DNA from: Escherichia phage vB_EcoM_ESCO8
Sequence record: OM386653.1
Direction: 5' to 3' (one strand)
Length of the DNA stretch: 64,000 bases
Numbering within the stretch: position 1 is the stretch's first letter; the number at the start of each line of letters is the position of its first letter. Shown here one piece after another: positions 3,508 to 57,137 of the stretch. A model generated the notes under the pieces. It saw nothing but the letters and a program-made list of their open reading frames with translations, did not search any database and was not told the DNA's origin. The position numbers and the translations under genes were made by a program.

Positions 3508-3810
3508 TTACTCCTTAAAAAAATCATTGACAATTAAACTGATAACGCCCAGCACCAGATCACCAGGTAGCGCCGCGCTTTCGTTGTTGCTTGTTTGCAC
3601 TTCCTCACTAGTACCAGCATGATAAATCGCATGGTAAGCAATAGTATAATAACCTTTCGTTATTTCTTTAAGATTAATGATTAGCACGTTATTTGTTTCA
3701 TCTTGAAACAATTTAGCGGTGATAGTATTGTTTTCTTTTACACTATCGACTTTTATTGATGGATCATTTACACCAGAAAAAAGAAAAAACGTTTTAGCTA
3801 TGCCGTTCAT
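3508..3810 (-). CDS. hypothetical protein
   Basis: ORF track 100 aa. Confidence 0.5.
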   Translation of the reverse strand: MNGIAKTFFLFSGVNDPSIKVDSVKENNTITAKLFQDETNNVLIINLKEITKGYYTIAYHAIYHAGTSEEVQTSNNESAALPGDLVLGVISLIVNDFFKE

Positions 3811-3857
3811 GTAGTTCTCCTTTGTTGTGTGTATCTTATAACGTGCTTTCTATGTTG

Positions 3858-4259
3858 TCAATCTTTTATCTCGGTGCATTTTGCTAGGGTATACGTTGCA
3901 AGTGCTGACACTAGTTTTTCATTGCTACGATCTGCGGCTGTACTGTGTACTTTTTGAATACTTTTTAACCACGGCGTAAAATTTTGAGTAGTGAGCACAC
4001 TGGTAATAATTTCACATGGCACATCTTCATTTAAGCCATTAACAATAGATTTATCTATTTTTGCCGTTAGTTGTGTAACAGCACCATAAGCGATCATGTG
4101 TGAATCCTCCATGATTTCATCGGGGATCGCATTATTAATAAGCATGACGTTTTCCATTGCATCAACGGCGCTTAATTCTGCTACTGTGGAGGATATCGCC
4201 GCGCTAGATGTTCCAACCATGCCAAAAGAGATTAAACCAGCGATCAATAATTTTTTCAT
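3858..4259 (-). CDS. hypothetical secreted protein (signal peptide)
   Basis: ORF track frame; start at MKKLLIAGLISFGMVGTSSA with GAGG RBS; N-terminal Sec-type signal. Confidence 0.5.
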   Translation of the reverse strand: MKKLLIAGLISFGMVGTSSAAISSTVAELSAVDAMENVMLINNAIPDEIMEDSHMIAYGAVTQLTAKIDKSIVNGLNEDVPCEIITSVLTTQNFTPWLKSIQKVHSTAADRSNEKLVSALATYTLAKCTEIKD

Positions 4260-4267
4260 TTCTTGCC

Positions 4268-4450
4268 TCATATATGTTTTATTGAGATTATATTGTCACT
4301 ATATACAACGTTTTTCAACGTGTCAATAAAAATCTTATTGCCTTCAATCCCCAGGATCACGCCGCTAGTTATGAAGCCATATTGATCACGATATCTGGCG
4401 CATAACCTTTGCCCCTGGGCTAGTGCCTTGCTTATTTCTTCTAATCTCAT
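4268..4450 (-). CDS. hypothetical protein
   Basis: ORF track 60 aa. Confidence 0.4.
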   Translation of the reverse strand: MRLEEISKALAQGQRLCARYRDQYGFITSGVILGIEGNKIFIDTLKNVVYSDNIISIKHI

Positions 4451-4720
4451 TTTAAAGCTCCTGTAAAGCCGTCTAACGTTGATTTATAGGCTTGCCCTGG
4501 CGTTACCATTGCCTATGGGTAACAAGCCTCTATATAAGCTAAAAGGGCGCTTATTGCGCCCTTTTTGTTATTCGTTCCAGTATCTTTTTGTGCTGCGATC
4601 TCTTTTTGTTTTGTTCCGCTTATCGCCTTTTTTGGTGATCTCTTCGTTCCAATTTTTACGCGCCTTGCTGCGGTTGAATTTTTCGATCTGCTGTGATGCG
4701 TTCATGTTTTTTCCTCTTAA

Positions 4721-5080
4721 TTACGCCACGTTATGCTGTTTTGCCAGGGTTACGATCATGCTTGCAATATATAACCAATAATTTTCCCGCTCACGGGTAA
4801 CGGTTGTTTCTTTACTTGTTTCTTTTATGTACTTCCATTCAATTAACAAGTGATCGATCTCGTTATAATCAAAAGCAATATTGATTTCTGACGGTAAACC
4901 TTGTAACCAGGAGGCTATCGCCTTGATCATGTTATGATTGTAACGTTTTTGATTATCGGGATACCAGTATTCAGATTTAAAACGGCGCATCAGTTCGGTG
5001 ATCTTTTCTTTTTCTGTTGTAGTACCATTAAAAGAAATAGCCGACACAATGTAAGTTTTAATTGCTTTTACTGATTTCAT
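4721..5080 (-). CDS. hypothetical protein
   Basis: ORF track 119 aa; leader hairpin 5101-5121 upstream. Confidence 0.55.
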   Translation of the reverse strand: MKSVKAIKTYIVSAISFNGTTTEKEKITELMRRFKSEYWYPDNQKRYNHNMIKAIASWLQGLPSEINIAFDYNEIDHLLIEWKYIKETSKETTVTRERENYWLYIASMIVTLAKQHNVA

Positions 5081-5130
5081 AATCTTATCTCTTTATTGAT
5101 GGCGGGAAACCATTTCCCGCCGTTGTTGTT

Positions 5131-5159
5131 ACTTTACTTATAAATCATGCTACTGTCAA
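5131..5159 (-). promoter_or_regulatory. sigma70-like early promoter with leader hairpin
   Basis: Minus strand TTGACA-17nt-TAAAGT then hairpin GGCGGGAAATGGTTTCCCGCC (5101-5121). Confidence 0.45.
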
Positions 5160-5169
5160 GCGGATATTA

Positions 5170-5337
5170 TTTATTTTTTAACGTTAATGTTCCCAGCTTA
5201 TCAGCGTGACGCAGACCAGGGAAGATCCATTTTCCTGATTCATCTTTTACCGGGGCTTTAAGCGTAGCGCCCAAGTTGGCGGCATTAACTTTACGTGCAA
5301 CGTTGCGAGCGGCTTCACGGGTGGCGAAAGTGATCAT
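5170..5337 (-). CDS. hypothetical small protein (55 aa)
   Basis: Manually read ORF MITFATREAARNVARKVNAANLGATLKAPVKDESGKWIFPGLRHADKLGTLTLKNK with GAGG-type RBS; below ORF-track cutoff. Confidence 0.4.
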
Positions 5338-5408
5338 GGTGTTTTCCTCTTCTCTTTGTTAGGCGGTTGGCTATTCCACCGCCTTGATGAATACAGTTTA
5401 CTCTATTT

Positions 5409-5567
5409 TTATTTCTTTGCAACTACTTTTATATTTTCTTTCTTTGCCTCTTCCACCTGATCCGCCCACTGCTTACCCCACGTTTGAGCGTTATAGTGAT
5501 ATTGACAAAGAGCAACGCCACGTTTTAAACCAGAGATAGACTTTTTACCACATTGGCAAGTTTTCAT
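5409..5567 (-). CDS. hypothetical small Cys-rich protein (52 aa, zinc-ribbon-like)
   Basis: Manually read ORF MKTCQCGKKSISGLKRGVALCQYHY...; CxC...CxxH pattern; AAGGG RBS. Confidence 0.4.
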   Translation of the reverse strand: MKTCQCGKKSISGLKRGVALCQYHYNAQTWGKQWADQVEEAKKENIKVVAKK

Positions 5568-5578
5568 TTTGTGATCCC

Positions 5579-5842
5579 TTAGTTGATAATTGTCAAAGTA
5601 AAATCATAATCTTTTGACAGTTTATATTGCACCTTGTTACCGTATATGTCACCTTTACGTAAAGATCCACGGATACCGATAACATCCTTCACGTCTTTTA
5701 AATTTTTCACGCCTGTAATGTCTTTGTTGAAATACTCGTCATCTGAAAATAAAACTTGACTTGCATTTTTTAACAGTGTGCGGATATTAGCCATTTTGAT
5801 AATCTCTCTTACTATGAGCGGCACTATTGCCGCCCTATGCAT
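5579..5842 (-). CDS. hypothetical protein
   Basis: ORF track 87 aa; hairpin 5806-5825 lies inside the 5' end of this ORF as tracked, so the true start may be an internal ATG. Confidence 0.5.
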   Translation of the reverse strand: MHRAAIVPLIVREIIKMANIRTLLKNASQVLFSDDEYFNKDITGVKNLKDVKDVIGIRGSLRKGDIYGNKVQYKLSKDYDFTLTIIN

Positions 5843-5881
5843 TACATTTTACTGATTTTAGTTATCTTGTCAAGATTATTT

Positions 5882-6109
5882 TTAGTTTAATCCATCCAGG
5901 CACAACAAGCGATCAACATTCAGATCGGTTAGGCTAATCGTTGGCACCTGGTAGGATTCGATGTACTCAACGCTCGACCATTGCCCGAAGTTAGCGACCG
6001 CCCAGCTATTCAAGGAAGAGTGAAGATCATCCCCTTTCTTCTCGGTGATAACTGCTACTACCTGGGAGCTTCCAACCGTACCGGATACGCGAACAATAAC
6101 GATAGCCAT
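5882..6109 (-). CDS. hypothetical protein
   Basis: ORF track 75 aa; leader hairpin 6123-6143 upstream. Confidence 0.5.
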   Translation of the reverse strand: MAIVIVRVSGTVGSSQVVAVITEKKGDDLHSSLNSWAVANFGQWSSVEYIESYQVPTISLTDLNVDRLLCLDGLN

Positions 6110-6154
6110 AATGATAACCTTTCTTTGATTTGGCGGGAAACCATTTCCCGCCCT

Positions 6155-6182
6155 ATGTGATATATCTTACACTAATTTAAAA
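6155..6182 (-). promoter_or_regulatory. sigma70-like early promoter with leader hairpin
   Basis: Minus strand TTGACA-16nt-TAAGAT followed by hairpin 6123-6143. Confidence 0.5.
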
Positions 6183-6286
6183 CGTTGTCAAATTATTTTC
6201 TATTTCTTCCGTAATAGCCTAATTTATGATCTAAGCTAAAACGTTTTGTGAGATAGGTCGAACGATGTTTCATTTTTATATCTCCT

Positions 6287-6526
6287 TTACATTCCAACCA
6301 TCGCGGCGCGGATTGCAGTTTTACTGAACTTGTAACCGTCTGGCGTTTTATCTTGATCCATACTTTCAAGAAATAACATCATATCACGCGCTGCGTCATT
6401 CTTATTGGTGTTAGCTGCGATAAATTCACGCGCAAGATTATAAAAACCTTCATCATTGTTGATCCAAAGGCTTACATTCCAATGAGTTTTGTTTTTGTGA
6501 CCTAAGAACATTTTTGATTTAGCCAT
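6287..6526 (-). CDS. hypothetical protein
   Basis: ORF track 79 aa; leader hairpin 6551-6567. Confidence 0.5.
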   Translation of the reverse strand: MAKSKMFLGHKNKTHWNVSLWINNDEGFYNLAREFIAANTNKNDAARDMMLFLESMDQDKTPDGYKFSKTAIRAAMVGM

Positions 6527-6614
6527 GATGTTAATCTCTTTTTCAGTGAGGCGGGAACTATTCCCGCTCTCTATGTAATACAGTTTACTCTTTTTATTCG
6601 TGCTGTCAATGCTT

Positions 6615-6980
6615 TTATAAATCTTTTTTACGTTTTACATCGCTTGCATGACTGTATACAGTGATCCCATTGTCACGGCAAAAACGGGAAAGGTAGGCAT
6701 AATTTGAAAACTCTTTACCTTCCAGGTTGATAACCTTGCTAAATTCTTCCATTGCTACAGTGTCAAAGTGATCCCCGTATCCATATTGGAACGGCACGTT
6801 TACTACTTCGATCAGTTTACCGCCGATCTCAACGTCAACCATCAAAGAGAAATAAGTATTACCATAAGACTTTTGAAACCAGCGACGGGCGCTAATATGT
6901 ACCGCTTCAATGCTGGATAGTTCAATTTTAGCAGTGTTAGCCAGGGTAGCATAAGCAGAAACATTGATATTTTTAGCCAT
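6615..6980 (-). CDS. hypothetical protein
   Basis: ORF track 121 aa. Confidence 0.55.
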   Translation of the reverse strand: MAKNINVSAYATLANTAKIELSSIEAVHISARRWFQKSYGNTYFSLMVDVEIGGKLIEVVNVPFQYGYGDHFDTVAMEEFSKVINLEGKEFSNYAYLSRFCRDNGITVYSHASDVKRKKDL

Positions 6981-7075
6981 AGTCTTTAATCTCTTTTGAT
7001 TAGTTAGGAGTATTCCCGATAAAAGTTATTATGCTTGTACTATCGTTCGTTGTCAATAGCACAAGACTAAAACTT

Positions 7076-7255
7076 TTAACGATAATCATCATAGGCTTTA
7101 TTGACCTGGCGAATATAGCATTCAAAAGCTAGATCAATAGATTTATATTCACGGATATAATCACCATAGGAAACCACATACATTTCTATAGCTTCCTCAT
7201 ATGCCAAGATGATAGAATCTAAACCTACGATCTCAGTCTTTGCAATAATAGCCAT
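7076..7255 (-). CDS. hypothetical small protein (59 aa)
   Basis: Manually read ORF MAIIAKTEIVGLDSIILAYEEAIEMYVVSYGDY...; just below ORF-track cutoff. Confidence 0.35.
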   Translation of the reverse strand: MAIIAKTEIVGLDSIILAYEEAIEMYVVSYGDYIREYKSIDLAFECYIRQVNKAYDDYR

Positions 7256-7401
7256 GCTTTTATTCCTTAGTAATGTTTCAATCTATATAAGCATTATAGC
7301 TTACTGATTTCAGGTGTCAAGTGATTTTTTATTTCACCTTATGGGGCGTTGCCCCGCTTTATGTGGTACATATTACGGGGCTTGTTTGCATATGTCAAGC
7401 C

Positions 7402-7947
7402 TTACACAATACAATTTTCATAATTTTTTAGGGCTTGTCTTTTTTCCTCTTCTGTCGGCATGTATGGCTGGATCTCTTCCTCTTCCAGGGTAGGCATGAT
7501 TTCTTCCTCTTCCTCCTGGTCTTCCTCTTGCGCTACGGCAACAAGTTTATTGATCTTCTCCTGGGCTTTAATCAATTTTGCATCTAGCACCATTTTAGCG
7601 GTGTTGTATACCGTCCATGCCATGCGTTTTTCTTCGTATGCTTTATCTAGTGCGGCTAATTTAGCGGGATACTCTTCTAACACCTTAAAAGCCGGATCAA
7701 TGCTATATAAGGGATTATTTTTAGCGTCATCGCTTGGATCTGCGGCGCTTGCAATGTCAGCGTTACCATTTGCCAGCCAACCAGGGCGAACGGATCGCGT
7801 CTTTGTGTGCCCGTTGCTCTTTGCCGCTCGATTCCCTATCTGCTCCCCGCTGTACCCTTCCATGTGATCGATCATGTCATCTGGTATTATGCGCGGATCA
7901 TTAGCGTCATGCTTTACCCATGACTGGATCACATATTCACGCCCCAT
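7402..7947 (-). CDS. hypothetical protein with highly acidic E-rich segment
   Basis: ORF track 181 aa; poly-Glu stretch; antisense ORF 7460..7867 judged shadow. Confidence 0.55.
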   Translation of the reverse strand: MGREYVIQSWVKHDANDPRIIPDDMIDHMEGYSGEQIGNRAAKSNGHTKTRSVRPGWLANGNADIASAADPSDDAKNNPLYSIDPAFKVLEEYPAKLAALDKAYEEKRMAWTVYNTAKMVLDAKLIKAQEKINKLVAVAQEEDQEEEEEIMPTLEEEEIQPYMPTEEEKRQALKNYENCIV

Positions 7948-8209
7948 GTTCGTTCGCCTCTTCTGTTAGTAGTTTACACACCTTAAACATGCTTGCCGCG
8001 TCTTTTGACGGTAGCCAGCCTATGCGATACACTCCAGGATCTGGATTCGTTATATCTGTTAATTGAGCGTTACGATGATTAAAGATAGTGTAACCGCCAC
8101 CAGCACGGGGATAAACATTATCTTTAAACCTGATAGCGTATCTCGCCAGGTTGAACGTTGTAGCATGTTCAAAAGCGATCACATTATCAAAAACTTTTAG
8201 AAAAAACAA
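7937..8209 (-). CDS. hypothetical protein
   Basis: ORF track 90 aa. Confidence 0.5.
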   Translation of the reverse strand: MFFLKVFDNVIAFEHATTFNLARYAIRFKDNVYPRAGGGYTIFNHRNAQLTDITNPDPGVYRIGWLPSKDAASMFKVCKLLTEEANEHGA

Positions 8210-8436
8210 GATTATCCTCCCCAGCGTTTAAAGCCCGTTGCACGGTTATTTTTTAACTCTCGTTTTAGTCTCTTGCAACGGTTTACAAGTGCAAACCGTG
8301 CCGGAGTTGTAACAGTAGCGCCGTTTTTGGTGTGAATACTCATTACATATTGTTTCATAAAGTTTTATCCTATGTAAGCGGGAATAGTTCCCGCTTTAAG
8401 ATAGCTTATCAGGTTTTAGTGCAATGTTAACCGTTT

Positions 8437-8799
8437 TTATTCGTAAATTTTACCGCTTTCTACCCATACCATAACACGGCGCATGTTATCCCATGCATCT
8501 TGTCGCAGATTTAAGGCATGCAATTCTTCGGTTGTGCTCATACCTGGTACGGGCTTGCTATATGTTACAAAGAGATCGCCAGCATATTCATAAGCCAGGG
8601 TAAGATCACATTGAATCATCTTTTTAAGCATAGCATTAAGCATCATATTAGCGGCATGTTGATCACGTTTTAGCGGTAGCGTTGCGATCTGTGAGCGATA
8701 GCTTTCGATCCGTGCATCCACTGCATCACGTGGAAGATTTTTCACGTCGTCGCGGAAAGATACCAGGTTTAACATGATAGTATTGATTTGCTTGCTCAT
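8437..8799 (-). CDS. hypothetical protein
   Basis: ORF track 120 aa; leader hairpin 8822-8843 upstream. Confidence 0.55.
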   Translation of the reverse strand: MSKQINTIMLNLVSFRDDVKNLPRDAVDARIESYRSQIATLPLKRDQHAANMMLNAMLKKMIQCDLTLAYEYAGDLFVTYSKPVPGMSTTEELHALNLRQDAWDNMRRVMVWVESGKIYE

Positions 8800-8885
8800 T
8801 GCATTACCCTTTCTTTGATTTGGCGGGAAACCATTTCCCCGCCTTATGTGGTATATATTACAAAATTATTTTTAAGTGTCAAGCC

Positions 8886-9158
8886 TTAAAGCAAAAACGC
8901 TACATCTTGCGCTTTTAGTGTAGTGTCGATCATTTTCGGGCTTTTATAATCCACAAAGCGCGCGGTTTTTTCAATAACGAAGCCGAGATAATCTTGTTTA
9001 TTGAAATTACATTCTTTTTTAAATGTTTCCCGTGCCACGGTGATCGCTGCATCCAGGGATAAACGCCCATCAATATTGATGTTAGCGAAAGATCCGCCAC
9101 CGCGCATAGGTTTACCAGTGATGCCAGCTACGATCATTGATGCGCTATATGATGCCAT
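8886..9158 (-). CDS. hypothetical protein
   Basis: ORF track 90 aa; leader hairpin 9181-9200 upstream. Confidence 0.55.
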   Translation of the reverse strand: MASYSASMIVAGITGKPMRGGGSFANINIDGRLSLDAAITVARETFKKECNFNKQDYLGFVIEKTARFVDYKSPKMIDTTLKAQDVAFLL

Positions 9159-49429: not shown

Positions 49430-50026
49430 ATGCTTACCGTATATGGTGAAGGTATTAATGATTTGGAAGGCGAGAGTACGCTACCTGGTAGTAAGAAACT
49501 AACGCCGCATTATATGAAATGGATGGCTATGTTGGGGAGGTGTTACTCCCCTTGTCAACAAGAACGTGATCCTTGTTATAATGGGGTGACGGTTTGTGAA
49601 GAATGGAAACTGTTCTCCAATTTCTACTCCTGGTTGCAAACTTGGGATAACTGGGAAAACTTAGAACTTGATAAAGATATTATAGGAGGGAGAGTTTACT
49701 CTCCCGATACCTGTCTTTTAGTAACAGGAGATCTTAACAAGTTCTTAGCTTATAGAGTAAGTAAAAGATCTCATGGGACTATGGTAGGATGTAGTTACGA
49801 AAAAGATCGTAAAAAGTATAAAGCCCATATTCAACGTGATGGACGTATTATAACGCTGGGACGTTTTAATACTGAAATTGAAGCGCATCTTTGCTGGTTG
49901 AAAGCTAAGGCAGAGCAGCTTACAAAATTCTTTGAAACTGAAGATGAAAGAGTTGTTCCACATCTTAAAGCACTATATAATGAAATGCTTGAGTATGTAG
50001 AACAACACAAAGAGTGGACACGATAG
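49430..50026 (+). CDS. AP2-domain DNA-binding protein (homing-endonuclease-associated type)
   Basis: 198 aa; GCSYEKDRKKYKAHIQRDGRIITLGRFNTEIEAH matches AP2/HNH-associated DNA-binding module; catalytic HNH motif not identified. Confidence 0.45.
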   Translation: MLTVYGEGINDLEGESTLPGSKKLTPHYMKWMAMLGRCYSPCQQERDPCYNGVTVCEEWKLFSNFYSWLQTWDNWENLELDKDIIGGRVYSPDTCLLVTGDLNKFLAYRVSKRSHGTMVGCSYEKDRKKYKAHIQRDGRIITLGRFNTEIEAHLCWLKAKAEQLTKFFETEDERVVPHLKALYNEMLEYVEQHKEWTR

Positions 50027-52094: not shown

Positions 52095-52826
52095 ATGAGC
52101 GAATTTGTAAACAACACCGCGTTAAACTACCTGCAAACCCTCGAAAGCAATAGTGTAGATTTGATTCTTACTGACCCACCATATGCTATTTCTCGTGACA
52201 CAAATTTTCAATCTGGAGAGCCTACTGGAAAAGATACAGATAGATTCCGTGTATCTTACAACTTTGGGGATTGGGATGTTGTAGATATTCCTTACTTTAA
52301 AGAAGTATTCAAAGAAGCCTATAGGGTGCTTAGAAAAGGTGGTACTTGCATAGTTTGGTATGATATCTGGAAGATCCAGGAGCTACGTGAAATCCTTGAA
52401 CCGCTTGGTTTTCGTATGTTCCGTACTATTGAATGGATTAAAACAAACCCTGTACCCATCAACAGTGGTGTTAACTACCTTAGTAACGCTAAAGAGATGG
52501 CTATTGTTTGTGTTAAAGGTTCTAAGCCAACCTTCAATGCCTCCTACCACAAGGGTGTGTTTGAGTATCCTATCTATCAAGGAGCAGATCGTTTTCATCC
52601 GACACAAAAACACTTGACTTTGTTTTGTGACCTTATTAATATACATACCAACGAAGGAGATGTAGTCTTAGACTTCTTCTCTGGAAGTGCAACAACACAA
52701 GTTGCGGCACTTTTAACAGGTAGAGAATACTTAGGCTGTGAAGCCGATGTAAATATTTTTAAGCAAGCGGAGGAACGACTAAATGAGTACACTGAACAGC
52801 AAAATCACCCTGAAAGCACTGATTAA
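52095..52826 (+). CDS. DNA methyltransferase, beta-class amino-MTase (N6A or N4C)
   Basis: 243 aa; motif IV LILTDPPYAI near N-terminus, motif I DFFSGSATT near C-terminus (beta-class order). Confidence 0.7.
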   Translation: MSEFVNNTALNYLQTLESNSVDLILTDPPYAISRDTNFQSGEPTGKDTDRFRVSYNFGDWDVVDIPYFKEVFKEAYRVLRKGGTCIVWYDIWKIQELREILEPLGFRMFRTIEWIKTNPVPINSGVNYLSNAKEMAIVCVKGSKPTFNASYHKGVFEYPIYQGADRFHPTQKHLTLFCDLINIHTNEGDVVLDFFSGSATTQVAALLTGREYLGCEADVNIFKQAEERLNEYTEQQNHPESTD

Positions 52827-53214
52827 CAACGGTATGAACCTGGACTCTGGTCTGTCTCCAAAGATTTCTATGGCACGACTAGAACAAGTTACTGGTCTTC
52901 GTCAAGTAAGTAATGGCGGTAAGATTATTCGTGATGACGCTGTACCTTTTAATAAATTTCAGATTGAACGTCATTACGATCCTGTAACTGCAAGTCTCAC
53001 TGGTGTAACTTTCTCAGGTTATCGTACTGCCGGATACCAACGTAAGGTTGTAGCTGAACGTATTAAAAATCGCAAACAGAAAATTGCAACATTGAAGAAA
53101 CTAGTAGAGAAAGATGTTTCAGAACTTCTTAACCTGTATGAAACTCTTGAGACAAAAGGTGAAGATCATAAACTCTTCTCTAAAGAAGATGTGAGCGTAA
53201 TTTTCACTGATTAA
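52783..53214 (+). CDS. hypothetical protein (start uncertain)
   Basis: ORF track 143 aa; overlaps MTase 3' end by 44 nt, later ATG possible. Confidence 0.4.
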   Translation: MSTLNSKITLKALINNGMNLDSGLSPKISMARLEQVTGLRQVSNGGKIIRDDAVPFNKFQIERHYDPVTASLTGVTFSGYRTAGYQRKVVAERIKNRKQKIATLKKLVEKDVSELLNLYETLETKGEDHKLFSKEDVSVIFTD

Positions 53215-53223
53215 GATAAAAGA

Positions 53224-53248
53224 AAAGGAGCCTATTGGCTCCTTTTTG
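53224..53248. terminator. Bidirectional terminator between convergent genes
   Basis: AAAAGGAGCC-tatt-GGCTCCTTTT with T/A runs both sides. Confidence 0.65.
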
Positions 53249-53249
53249 T

Positions 53250-55136
53250 TTATGTAACATTGACTGTAAATCTGACAAGAGGTGATAACACGTCATTATC
53301 AGCATCATAGTGTGCAACATCAAACACTGCTGTACCTGCTGCAAACCCGTATTGTTCAACCTGATCTGCATAAGTAAATGTGTAAGTGTTAGTATCAAGA
53401 GTTTGTTCTGTAAGAATTGCTGCTGTGAGGACGTTTACATTTCGGAAGTAATGTTTGGTATATCCTGCTGGTTCCCAAGAAATAATTGCATCTTGGTTAG
53501 CTTGTCTTACAGCGGCTCCTCCTGTTGGAACAGACATATCAACCCAAACAGGTGGTGTTGATGTTAAATCTGTACCGTCTGCTGCTGATTTAGCAAGTTT
53601 TGTAGCTGCTGTTTGATATACAGAAGAAATATAATGGATACGACCATCAATACCTTCTTCATAAACATAACCACTGTAACGTTCAGCACCATCTACCCAA
53701 GAACCAATGATAACATCATCACGTGCTGTAGAGATGGTTCTTTGTACATTTCTGTACTTCTGCCAATCCACACCATTAACTTCTACACCATATAAATAAG
53801 AACGTCCTAGGATCTGCCAAACAATTTTTGCTTGAGAAGCAGGAACTATTGTACGCATCTTATCAAAGATAGCTATCGTAGCATCATGGTAACGTGTAGT
53901 GTTACTGTACCTACCTGCAACAGTCGAAGATGCTGATACAGCATCATTTTCACCTTGTCCCCAAATAATTGCTTTAACCTTACTTGCATAAGGTGTGACT
54001 TTAGTGATAAAGTTAGTTAAGCATGGCCCATCTGCTGTGTTATCCAGATCATACCAGTAGTTGTCTGGTGTACCTGTTCCAGCTTTATCGTCAGCATATT
54101 TATCTGCTGCTGATGATCCAGAAGCTGTATTTAACGGAAGAACTTCAGCATTTGCTAAACCACGTTGCGTAGCATATGCATTACGGGTTGTTGTGCTACT
54201 CATTACTGCTTTATTTGCACCAGATAATTCTGTAAAGTGTGCATTTACGTTATCTTGTCCAGCAAAGACAATAACTTCTTTAATGAACGAATCATCTGTA
54301 GCTATTGAGTTATTAAAGATAACGGCTGCTGCTTTGGTGCTCTTAACGCTAATTTTAAGGTATGTTGGAGCAAACCCATAAAGAGGAATAGAGTCAGAGA
54401 TATCAAAGTAAGCGTAAGTATTCGTGGTTGTTGTAGTCCACTGAACACTATTATCACTTAAATCTAATACTTCTACAGTATAAGTATCACCGTCTAGTGG
54501 ATCAGTTACATCCCAAGCAACACGAACGTCTCCATAACTGTTTGCCACGGCTGTTACATTAGAAATAACAGGAATAGCATTAACACCTAAATAAGAACTA
54601 TCAGAGGCCACAACTGTTCCTTGATACGTTGCAGTACAACCTATACGGCAATTGCCATCTTTAAGAGCAGTTATTAATCCTGTAGGGCTTACAGTAGCTA
54701 CTTCTGGATCTGTTGTGGTGTATGTAATTACCATATCTGGAAGGTCTTTAGCACCTTCTGGACTGATTGTAGCAACCAACTGTTGAGTAGTGCCTACATC
54801 CATAGCCGATAGACTTTCAGTGTACACACTTAATTCTGAAGCATAACCACCAGATTGATCAGTTAAGACAGCACCTAAATTATTTTTAGCTGTCATTATT
54901 GCATCAAAACCACCTTCAGCAACAAACTCCATCATACCATTATTATCTATAACCATTTTGGTATTATCTGAAGATGAAAAAGCTATATCAAATAACGCAC
55001 CATCTTCGGGTGTAACTGTATATGTCAGTTGTTTTTTACTACCAACTATTGCAATGCCAATAGAGGAAGTGGTTATAGATGTAGCTGTTACTACTGAAGC
55101 TGATGTTGTTGACATAAATAAAGGAATAGGATACAT
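53250..55136 (-). CDS. Tail fiber / receptor-binding protein with Ig-like (Big_2) domains and SASA-type carbohydrate esterase domain
   Basis: 628 aa; Big_2-like ATVSPTGLITALKDGNCRIGCTA; esterase-like motifs IVFAGQDNVNAH and IIWGQGENDA. Confidence 0.55.
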   Translation of the reverse strand: MYPIPLFMSTTSASVVTATSITTSSIGIAIVGSKKQLTYTVTPEDGALFDIAFSSSDNTKMVIDNNGMMEFVAEGGFDAIMTAKNNLGAVLTDQSGGYASELSVYTESLSAMDVGTTQQLVATISPEGAKDLPDMVITYTTTDPEVATVSPTGLITALKDGNCRIGCTATYQGTVVASDSSYLGVNAIPVISNVTAVANSYGDVRVAWDVTDPLDGDTYTVEVLDLSDNSVQWTTTTTNTYAYFDISDSIPLYGFAPTYLKISVKSTKAAAVIFNNSIATDDSFIKEVIVFAGQDNVNAHFTELSGANKAVMSSTTTRNAYATQRGLANAEVLPLNTASGSSAADKYADDKAGTGTPDNYWYDLDNTADGPCLTNFITKVTPYASKVKAIIWGQGENDAVSASSTVAGRYSNTTRYHDATIAIFDKMRTIVPASQAKIVWQILGRSYLYGVEVNGVDWQKYRNVQRTISTARDDVIIGSWVDGAERYSGYVYEEGIDGRIHYISSVYQTAATKLAKSAADGTDLTSTPPVWVDMSVPTGGAAVRQANQDAIISWEPAGYTKHYFRNVNVLTAAILTEQTLDTNTYTFTYADQVEQYGFAAGTAVFDVAHYDADNDVLSPLVRFTVNVT

Positions 55137-55154
55137 TTAATCTCCTTAAACAAT

Positions 55155-55172
55155 AAGCCCCCGAAGGGGCTT
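55155..55172 (-). terminator. Hairpin terminator
   Basis: AAGCCCC-cgaa-GGGGCTT 3' of minus gene 55176..57137. Confidence 0.5.
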
Positions 55173-55175
55173 TGA

Positions 55176-57137
55176 TTATGTGCGTTTAGCAACAATAGCA
55201 TCCACGTAATCACCAACACCACAATATGTTAGTTGTAGTATTGTTACTCCGTTAGGATCTGTATTAATATCACTAGAACCAATTACTTTATAAGATGGAT
55301 CTAAAGTAACAGTACGACCTCCAGTGGCATCTTGGATAAGATAAACTATTGCAGAGAATGGTTTAGGTTTTGTGCTATCTTCGACACCAGGCCATGCTTT
55401 TATAGTAGAGTTACCAGTAAGATTCAACACATTCATGTTATGTGTTCCTGGAGGTGTCCAGTCACCTGTAACAGAGTTGTTGGTATATGCTGTAACCTCT
55501 ATAAAATTAGTTGTTACTTTTGTTGGAACTATATCTTGACCATCTACAGAACTGGTGAGTTCTTCCCATGCTCCATCTTTACGAGCATAGATCTTACCGT
55601 CACTAGGTGCATCTGTAATGCTAGGTAGTGTACCTTGAGAAGTCCAGACAGTTGCAGATGTTTTTAAGAACACCTCGCCAGTGGAGATATTAAAGGCATA
55701 ATCCCCTTGTTTACCATCACTAGAGATTGGATCTGTTGTTTTAACAATCCAAGTTGCACCGTCTGTACCGTTAGTACCAGCGTCACCTTTCTCACCCTTA
55801 TCACCTTTCAAACTGCCCATATCTACATATTCAGCAGTTTGAGTTTGTTCATCATAGGTGTAAATGTAAAGATGACCTGTGTCTTCCGTTAGATAAGCAT
55901 CACCGTAATTGGATGTAGGAGGAAGTGCACTTGCAGACGCAACGTGTCCTTTTGCAGTGATTGGAGTACCAGCTAAACGACCAACATTTGTCCACTGTGT
56001 GGCTCCTTGCAACCAAACCCAAAGTTCATTATTGATCAGATAACCATCACCATCTTCTCCAGTTTGTGGTAGTTCAGAAGTGTCAGTCAGAATATCAATA
56101 ATGGTCAACCCTGCACCAGTTGGCCCCGTCAAGCCTTGTATACCCTGCTCACCTTGATCACCCTTGTCTCCCTTATCACCTTTTTCTCCTTTCAGAGAGG
56201 CAATATATTCGTCAATAGTACCAACGTTACCAGCGTTTAACCAGACTTGATAAGCTGAATCACCAGTGTTACCCTTATCTCCTTTGTCGCCTTTATCTCC
56301 TTTTGGCCCCACTATAGCACCCATATTGATCCATTCTACACCGTTTGACACGTATAGATATGTACCAATACTCCATGCTTGAGATGTGTTTCCAGGAGAT
56401 GCAGAAGGAAGATCTGAAACGGAATTAGCTGCACCTTGGTAATCAAAACCATTAGCATTGTTACCTGGTACACCTTGTGGCCCCTCTGGGCCAGGCTCCC
56501 CTTTATCACCTTTAATTGAAGCAAGATAATCTAGTTCTGTACCTTGGTTTCCTGCTGCAAGCCAAACTTGATAAGCTGATTTACCTTCTGGCCCCTGTGA
56601 GTTTACTTTTCTCCAAGCAGTACCATCCCAAGCATACATATTCTCGCCTACAATCCATGCATCTCCTGCATTGTTTCCAGTTGTAGGTAATTGGTTGGTA
56701 TTAGATAGCGTCCCTAGCAGCTTTAATGGAGCACCTGGATCACCTTTTAAAGAAGCCAACCACTCTGTCTCAGTACCTTGGAAACCATTGTCTACGGCAA
56801 TCTGGTAAGCTGATTTACCAGCTTCTGGAATGGATTCTCTAAGATCTTCAATTTCAGCTTCAATAGCATCTAATTCTGATTCTATTTGAGCAATGTCATC
56901 TGCATTACCCACATTTTTCCAAGCTGTATCTGAAATACCTCCAGTAGATGTAGGAGTAGAGTTAGCAGGTACAACTTTAGGTAGAGAACCTTTCCACTGA
57001 TAGTAGTTACCGTCAGTTTCAAAGAGCAATGCTTCACGAGCATCTCTTAAGGTAAAACCACTTGCAAAACTTCTACGCTTTCTATAGCGAGACTCTACCA
57101 TGTCTGCAATGGCACTATTTGGACGTGTTAAAATCAC
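55176..57137 (-). CDS. Tail fiber protein with collagen-like Gly-X-Y repeats
   Basis: 653 aa; runs GDKGDKGDKGNTG and GEKGDKGDKGDQGEQGIQGLTGPTG. Confidence 0.65.
   Translation of the reverse strand: MILTRPNSAIADMVESRYRKRRSFASGFTLRDAREALLFETDGNYYQWKGSLPKVVPANSTPTSTGGISDTAWKNVGNADDIAQIESELDAIEAEIEDLRESIPEAGKSAYQIAVDNGFQGTETEWLASLKGDPGAPLKLLGTLSNTNQLPTTGNNAGDAWIVGENMYAWDGTAWRKVNSQGPEGKSAYQVWLAAGNQGTELDYLASIKGDKGEPGPEGPQGVPGNNANGFDYQGAANSVSDLPSASPGNTSQAWSIGTYLYVSNGVEWINMGAIVGPKGDKGDKGDKGNTGDSAYQVWLNAGNVGTIDEYIASLKGEKGDKGDKGDQGEQGIQGLTGPTGAGLTIIDILTDTSELPQTGEDGDGYLINNELWVWLQGATQWTNVGRLAGTPITAKGHVASASALPPTSNYGDAYLTEDTGHLYIYTYDEQTQTAEYVDMGSLKGDKGEKGDAGTNGTDGATWIVKTTDPISSDGKQGDYAFNISTGEVFLKTSATVWTSQGTLPSITDAPSDGKIYARKDGAWEELTSSVDGQDIVPTKVTTNFIEVTAYTNNSVTGDWTPPGTHNMNVLNLTGNSTIKAWPGVEDSTKPKPFSAIVYLIQDATGGRTVTLDPSYKVIGSSDINTDPNGVTILQLTYCGVGDYVDAIVAKRT

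Follow-up and report, generated by a model that had tools for sequence, protein, structure and literature searches.

The 64,000-nucleotide stretch of Escherichia phage vB_EcoM_ESCO8 analysed here (OM386653.1; below, the window) carries an open reading frame (ORF) on the minus strand, at exactly 53250-55136 in the ORF listing of the window, which begins with ATG and encodes 628 aa; these coordinates are those of the initial annotation. This ORF is the terminal gene of a minus-strand tail-fibre operon, with genes for a 653-aa fibre and an 804-aa tailspike upstream of it on the same strand, and PHROG 32204 ('tail protein') spans the full length of its product. The initial annotation described the product as a tail fibre in which Ig-like domains are joined to a de-O-acetylating SASA-type esterase. 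We found that the domain order and the SGNH fold of this proposal hold, but that the serine nucleophile is replaced by aspartate; the de-O-acetylating function had rested on a misread motif and is disfavoured.

Region boundaries were taken from a full-length AlphaFold2 (AF2) model of the ORF product (Table 1). The N-terminal stalk was modelled as all-beta with low confidence. Here the Big_2 family (PF02368) matched in two stretches with E = 1.9e-13 and 50.6 bits, against a gathering score of 22.8, which agrees with the Ig-like domains expected from the initial annotation. The family phrog_11922 matched aa 2-292 (E = 4.6e-97), and the tail families phrog_215 and phrog_28902 also matched. By tblastn, the Ig stalk is common to tail proteins of Phapecoctavirus, 4MG, PVP-SE1-like and other myoviruses, at 45-67% identity. 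The two beta-sandwich domains are weakly alike, and the C-terminal one matches residues 1082-1171 and 1206-1276 of phage N4 gp65. Searching Pfam and PHROG with the ORF product revealed no coiled coil, beta-helix, collagen, intramolecular chaperone or known N-terminal anchor. Judged from the model, the product seems to be a monomer made of globular domains in a row, and not a classical trimeric fibre. The term 'tail fibre' is thus a loose one, there being no trimerisation element either and the closest solved relative being N4 gp65.

The match of the ORF product itself to the Pfam SASA family (PF03629; gathering score 24.8 bits) was sub-threshold: the whole protein scored 15.1 bits and the isolated domain 17.0 bits. 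However, SASA was matched by 14 of 24 aligned domain relatives (best E = 2.9e-9). All eight of the more distant relatives also matched, seven of them passing the gathering score, and these matches extended through the C-terminal His block. The full-length Avunavirus-type ortholog (P0004, 41% identical) passed the gathering score with 25.0 bits. The AF2 model of the SGNH domain was confident (pLDDT 94.6, pTM 0.91), and its flavodoxin-like alpha/beta/alpha fold was nearest to SASA-family structures. Because of the scores of the relatives and this confident model, the assignment of a SASA-type fold is sound, and the similarity to SASA is far beyond chance. The best solved match by sequence was N4 gp65, both with phmmer against the PDB (E = 2.1e-25) and with a profile (hmmsearch, E = 2.4e-69), and the best Foldseek matches were likewise to gp65 (TM 0.76-0.79). 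Also among the structural matches was PDB 2w9x, a CE2 esterase whose title refers to an esterase active site with catalytic and non-catalytic binding functions.

We compared the catalytic blocks with those of about 90 domain instances aligned to the query, and with a second alignment of 16 full-length relatives. The W.QGE.N/D signature named in the initial annotation is present in block III. The GQSN signature is not: the ORF product reads GQDN, with Asp295 at the serine position, while GQSN is found in most of the about 90 aligned domains. This serine is the sole residue of the S-G-N-H signature that is altered in the ORF product. The GAT codon of Asp295 is at least two nucleotides away from every Ser codon. 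VEcB, phi92 and two IMG/VR relatives (L004 and L005) all have this Asp too, so it is not a sequencing error. In the AF2 model Asp295 lies where strand 1 meets helix 1. Among the 16 full-length relatives N296, G395, E396, D398 and H501 are nearly invariant and Y502 is nearly invariant or invariant; blocks II and III, which hold the oxyanion-hole Gly and Asn, are likewise nearly invariant. The initial annotation had staked its esterase proposal on a profile match and on conservation of the catalytic Ser and His, and here the outcome is mixed: the His is conserved, the Ser is not, and the SASA match of the ORF product itself is sub-threshold. In block V the acidic residue stands at His-4 (DGRIH) and not at the classical His-3 (DxxH), but the missing His-3 Asp is not diagnostic, because many GQSN relatives also lack it (GWIHY).

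Table 1. The gene at the end of the tail-fibre operon, its domains, catalytic blocks and flanking signals. Positions are those of the window.
Feature	Position	Strand	Residues and remarks
Whole ORF	53250..55136	-	628 aa; orthologous to gp208 of VEcB ('tail protein') and to gp152+gp153, the broken phi92 copy
N-terminal Ig-like stalk	54576..55136	-	aa 1-187; two Big_2 domains (Pfam, PHROG, tblastn)
Beta-sandwich domain 1	54297..54575	-	aa 188-280; AF2 pLDDT about 85-94; part deleted in phi92
SASA/CE6-type SGNH-fold domain	53562..54296	-	aa 281-525; alpha/beta/alpha, high-confidence AF2
C-terminal beta-sandwich domain 2	53253..53534	-	aa 535-628; AF2 pLDDT above 90; homolog of the C-terminal repeat domains in N4 gp65
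Block I	54252..54254	-	GAT codon of Asp295; G293-Q-D295-N296, family consensus GQSN
Block II		-	S339-G-S-S; family consensus Gly-rich (GSSAAD); Gly340 kept
Block III	53943..53963	-	W392-GQGEND-398; 'GxND' Asn397 kept; family consensus W.QGE.D
Block V	53631..53648	-	D497-GRIHY-502; His501 kept; family consensus (G)x(I/V)HY
Shine-Dalgarno AAGGAG	55142..55147	-	5 nt before the ATG at 55136
GC-rich bidirectional intrinsic-terminator-like hairpin	53222..53247	.	between the ORF stop and the convergent gene 52783-53214

Block I of the Avunavirus-type ortholog reads GGDN, so that the Asp is common to both proteins, and in a neighbour-joining tree the two are sisters. Their sister group in this tree holds relatives with GQSN (P0007 and P0008) and GQAN (P0006). 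This placement indicates that the Ser-to-Asp change is older than the divergence of the two phage genera, and that the Asp has been kept through about 55-60% divergence. Both the whole gene (dN/dS 0.09-0.15) and the SGNH domain (about 0.05) are under purifying selection. Catalytic residues have also been lost elsewhere in the family: P0014 (S to M, H to N), P0047 (S to V, H to A) and P0030 (S to A, H to T) have changed both Ser and His, P0019 has Glu for Ser and no His, and in the 'copy 2' clade of N4 gp65 block I is gone entirely, together with nearly all catalytic residues. At the level of the alignment, these repeated and independent losses show that the scaffold is reused non-catalytically.

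The DNA of the gene is 100% identical in Escherichia phages outra and ESCO32, and 94-99.5% identical in about 50 further phi92-like myoviruses (Stephanstirmvirinae, Justusliebigvirus). An N4-like source phage, suggested by the PDB match to gp65, was rejected on the 100% identity of the window to a Justusliebigvirus. The RefSeq ortholog in VEcB (gp208, 'tail protein') closes the tail-fibre operon there too, and the ortholog of Avunavirus Av-05 has the same operon-terminal position. The gene is in one piece in 53 of 57 phage records. The phi92 record annotates the same AGGAG ribosome-binding site (RBS), and the phi92 copy of the gene (FR775895, L003 2411-4073) is degraded: about 218 nt are missing (gene nt 591-808), and the frame is shifted twice, by 1 nt lost at codon 272 and 2 nt gained at codon 334. 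In the phi92 annotation the broken gene appears as two products, gp152 ('lambda V-like fold') and gp153 ('no RBS, weak prodigal statistics'). As phi92 is viable despite its broken copy, the gene is dispensable in this phage. The splitting of the broken reference copy into gp152 and gp153 is probably the main reason why the ORF has been overlooked.

A word-indexed protein search with the SGNH domain returned two near-identical fragments only. An exhaustive phmmer search of 1.84 billion representatives with the same domain found just 79 relatives at the cut-off of E <= 1e-3, and NCBIfam had no model for the ORF product or for two of its relatives. Four records labelled 'Campylobacter phage' (A150, C3, A110a and A145; MG065639, MG065656, MG065689 and MG065645) share about 98% identity with phi92-like phages of E. 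coli over the gene; their Campylobacter jejuni label is probably wrong, or the preparations were contaminated.

A 939-aa long variant of the protein was seen in phage alia (BFVD A0A6B9X4H6), in P0003 and in the IMG/VR locus L005 (6001-7887 and beyond). This variant has no stop at residue 628, and its extra 311-aa tip matches the C-terminus of phrog_11922, a tail-protein family. Its aa 526-628 are strongly diverged (dS about 1.1). The pattern of divergence points to a C-terminal end that is prone to recombination; exposed host-recognition proteins typically have mosaic, recombining ends of this kind.

The genes upstream agree with the beta-helix tailspike and collagen-like fibre of the initial annotation, and with its view of a multivalent adsorption apparatus, here of the phi92 type (Pfam, PHROG). 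The 804-aa tailspike, a homolog of phi92 gp150, falls in the colanic-acid-degrading family PHROG 6117. The 653-aa fibre (window 55176-57137, minus strand) begins with an attachment domain of the G7C-gp66/CBA120-TSP1 type (PF18668, E = 3.6e-21). It also has collagen (GXY) stretches in several places, and its aa 502-529 give a weak foldon-like match to fibritin-C. Its phi92 homolog, gp151, was not placed in density in the 2026 phi92 cryo-EM paper (PMC13450770). Between the stop of this fibre gene and the RBS of the ORF there is a GC-rich hairpin, AAGCCCCTTCGGGGGCTT, with a weak T tract (window 55155-55172, minus strand), which may reduce read-through into the ORF as the operon's last gene. Further away in the window, an HNH endonuclease ORF (49430-50026, plus strand) lies directly 3' of the DNA polymerase I gene; in the relative VEcB, four glycosyltransferase genes stand in a row upstream of the helicase and polymerase genes.

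We propose, with moderate confidence, that the ORF product is an accessory, non-catalytic, glycan-binding pseudo-esterase adhesin. It would be a virion-associated tail protein whose domains follow one another like beads on a string: a pair of Big_2 Ig domains first, then a beta-sandwich and the SASA-type SGNH domain, and a further beta-sandwich at the end. The SGNH and beta-sandwich module would stem from the N4-gp65-like family of sheath and receptor-binding proteins, and would have been grafted onto the Ig stalk of myovirus tail proteins. Although Asp295 has taken the place of the nucleophile Ser, purifying selection has preserved what else makes up the acetyl-binding pocket, namely the Gly of block II, the GEND Asn and the His of block V. 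Because the serine is gone, an acyl-enzyme presumably cannot form, and the former active site would most likely act as a non-hydrolysing, lectin-like pocket for an acetylated glycan of the host surface, from which the acetyl groups would not be stripped. Pocket and Ig domains together could then mediate reversible adhesion beside the colanidase tailspike and the collagen-like fibre. Viral haemagglutinin-esterases with a Ser-to-Ala change, which are used as O-acetyl-sialic-acid lectins, provide an experimental analogy for such a pseudo-esterase, and the CE2 esterase of PDB 2w9x is, by its title, a precedent for an SGNH active site with a second, non-catalytic binding role.

Several observations support this proposal. 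The Asp is shared with the sister-branch ortholog of the Avunavirus type, which argues that it is old and maintained, and the viability of phi92 with a broken copy argues for an accessory role. The tail context also favours an adhesin, the gene being the last of the fibre operon both here and in Av-05, its product matching PHROG tail families and the long variant bearing a tail-protein tip. We infer from this that the protein is present in the virion, binds a glycan and lacks esterase activity; naming NGR or another acetylated polysaccharide as the ligand would be only a guess. Weighing against the proposal, the retained His, the GEND Asn and the acidic residue at the nucleophile position could permit residual or altered catalysis, and one GenBank record (phage ALITA) labels the ortholog 'tail carbohydrate esterase'. 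In addition, the 2026 phi92 cryo-EM paper (PMC13450770), which screened all phi92 proteins for fibres, omits gp152/153, and no virion proteomics was found. The silence of that paper on gp152/153 is probably explained by the broken phi92 copy.

The ORF product could instead be mainly a structural or adaptor subunit with no ligand of its own, whose SGNH and beta-sandwich domains, like the sheath domains of gp65, would serve for protein-protein packing, here in the baseplate and fibre network, and would for example anchor or space the gp151-like fibre or the gp150-like tailspike. Among solved structures the nearest homolog, gp65, is a structural sheath subunit that binds the tail plug through its C-terminal domains, and the gp65 copy-2 clade has shed nearly all catalytic residues. 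The upstream neighbour has an attachment domain of the gp66 type, and phi92 fibre II and the attachment scheme of gp150 and gp151 were left unresolved in PMC13450770. However, N296, G395, E396, D398 and H501 in the pocket have stayed nearly invariant over about 60% divergence, and a purely structural domain would not require them. Infectious phi92 particles assemble with the gene broken, so the product is no required scaffold, and Big_2 Ig domains with a recombining C-terminal end are typical of exposed adhesins. We consider a mainly structural role unlikely.

An active carbohydrate de-O-acetylase, which would alter an acetylated receptor glycan as G7C gp63.1 does, would have to use Asp295 with His501 as a general base or unusual nucleophile, or draw its nucleophile from another residue. 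The SASA-type fold is there, and purifying selection has conserved the Gly of block II, the GEND of block III and the His of block V. The replacement is specifically an acidic Asp kept across two genera, and not a random residue; SGNH deacetylase fibres are common in phages, and the label of the ALITA ortholog points the same way. However, the ORF product has no nucleophile Ser, although GQSN is kept by close relatives (P0007, P0008) and by most of the family. The family is rich in clearly dead copies, which makes loss of catalysis a common event, and the SASA score of the ORF product itself lies under the Pfam threshold. Substitution of the Ser normally abolishes SGNH hydrolase activity, and we know of no SGNH hydrolase with an Asp nucleophile. 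Hydrolysis by this protein therefore appears rather improbable to us.

A further possibility concerns the NGR glycan. A 'glycan deacetylase' fibre domain is reported to be common to Vequintavirinae, phi92-like phages and N4, all of them NGR-dependent (wecB, nfrB) (Maffei et al., bioRxiv 10.1101/2021.03.08.434280; Sellner et al., PMC8669472), and phi92 Gp142, with the motif GMSHY, is named as the NGR-binding protein (2026 preprint 10.64898/2026.04.02.716166). N4 gp64 and part of gp65 carry the TIM barrel PF23845, and phi92-like phages encode homologs of both N4 sheath modules. The homolog of the phi92 gp142-type TIM barrel should lie about 10.5 kb from the ORF, just past the end of the window (about 64.1-64.9 kb, extrapolated), and none of the six frames of the window contains GMSHY. 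Identity of the ORF with the BASEL/Sellner 'glycan deacetylase fibre' (the N4 Gp64 homolog) was rejected, as that fibre is this separate TIM-barrel gene outside the window. In the literature examined on these phages, including the 2026 preprint, a protein of the gp152/153 type is not mentioned.

The ORF product might nevertheless form one half of an N4-type receptor device, which together with the gp142-homolog TIM-barrel fibre would rebuild the gp64-gp65 module and help to recognise NGR or the exporter NfrA. Justusliebigvirus phages do depend on NGR (wecB, nfrB, nfrA), the TIM barrel and a gp65-like SGNH/beta-sandwich protein are both encoded, and the two modules are fused in a single chain in most relatives. 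However, rV5-type Vequintavirus phages are NGR-dependent and have no homolog of the SGNH domain, and the phi92 copy is broken; for these two reasons the idea that the ORF product is itself the NGR receptor-binding protein was downgraded. With the published NGR determinant, GMSHY of gp142, also missing from the window, a shared N4-type device seems doubtful, and we rate it as distinctly unlikely. Very improbable, lastly, is a D-G-N-H site in which Asp295, His501 and the intact oxyanion hole (Gly340, Asn397) hydrolyse or covalently capture an acetylated or de-N-acetylated sugar; if real, it would be an SGNH catalytic variant with an acidic residue for the serine nucleophile, maintained across two phage genera.

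Some of this was already known: databases list the family under 'tail protein', in one case under 'tail carbohydrate esterase', and both SGNH domains on phage fibres and the multivalent apparatus of phi92 have been described. The conserved Ser-to-Asp change, the N4-gp65-type sheath origin of the module and the degraded reference copy in phi92 appear to be unreported in the literature searched. Phi92-like phages are therapy candidates with a very broad host range, and their fibre set is only partly assigned, fibre II of phi92 still lacking an assigned protein. With an esterase fold that lacks the serine, annotations as 'tail carbohydrate esterase' are probably wrong on function. The conserved, natural Ser-to-Asp SGNH domain offers a clean test case for conversion of an esterase scaffold to a lectin, and the likeness between these myoviruses and the podovirus N4 reaches past the published TIM barrel to a second, gp65-derived module. 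The general understanding of phage adsorption is unchanged.

Among known systems, the closest comparison is with N4 gp65, a 1382-aa non-contractile tail sheath and receptor-binding protein (PDB 9lc0, 9yf4, 9yf5; NCTSP architecture). Both proteins are chains of globular domains, and gp65 holds two SGNH-like copies followed by the same beta-sandwich. Residues 273-618 of the ORF product correspond to gp65 719-1067 (SGNH-like copy 2 and beta-sandwich), and residues 278-438 to gp65 429-592 (copy 1). Copy 1 retains the Ser (GESQ), whereas copy 2 is without block I. The two proteins differ in that gp65 has the NCTSP_N (PF23844) and TIM-barrel_NCTSP (PF23845) domains, neither of which matched the ORF product, while the latter has an Ig (Big_2) stalk, is 628 aa long and belongs to a contractile-tailed phage. 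NCTSP_N, TIM-barrel_NCTSP and the SGNH domain together make up P0005, P0006, P0008, P0009, P0012 and P0013, most of the closest representatives; P0004 and P0007, like the ORF product, are without the N-terminal NCTSP parts. The stretches read from gp65-type proteins of Achromobacter, Delftia and Phobos phages were all copy-2-type domains, which are uninformative on retention of the Ser.

In N4 itself (L002; gp65 at 3720-7868, gp64 at 7901-9154) two domains seem to be divided between the two chains. Matches to the SASA-like profile fall in gp65 437-604 (blocks I-III, with the Ser in 'GESQ') and gp64 14-77 (His block 'GIGQIHF'), and those to TIM-barrel_NCTSP in gp65 374-416 (profile 4-46) and gp64 109-407 (profile 60-347), while single-chain relatives carry both domains whole. 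From these profile matches, an esterase site could be assembled across the gp64-gp65 interface.

The SASA/CE6-type SGNH esterases (1zmb, 2apj, NanS 3pt5 and SIAE 8f9r) have a Ser nucleophile where the ORF product has Asp295, and the classical DxxH where it has DGRIH, and its score lies under the Pfam gathering threshold of their family. In their fibre locus the phages that carry the ORF also encode the phi92 gp142-type TIM-barrel 'poly-GlcNAc deacetylase' fibre. It too shares homology with part of the N4 sheath proteins, but it is a separate protein with another fold (TIM barrel PF23845) and the GMSHY motif. The SGNH deacetylase fibres and tailspikes of phages (G7C gp63.1, PDB 4qnl; Pectobacterium phage Possum; PPWS4) likewise place an SGNH fold on a host-recognition protein that, as with the ORF product, adjoins other fibres in a branched apparatus.

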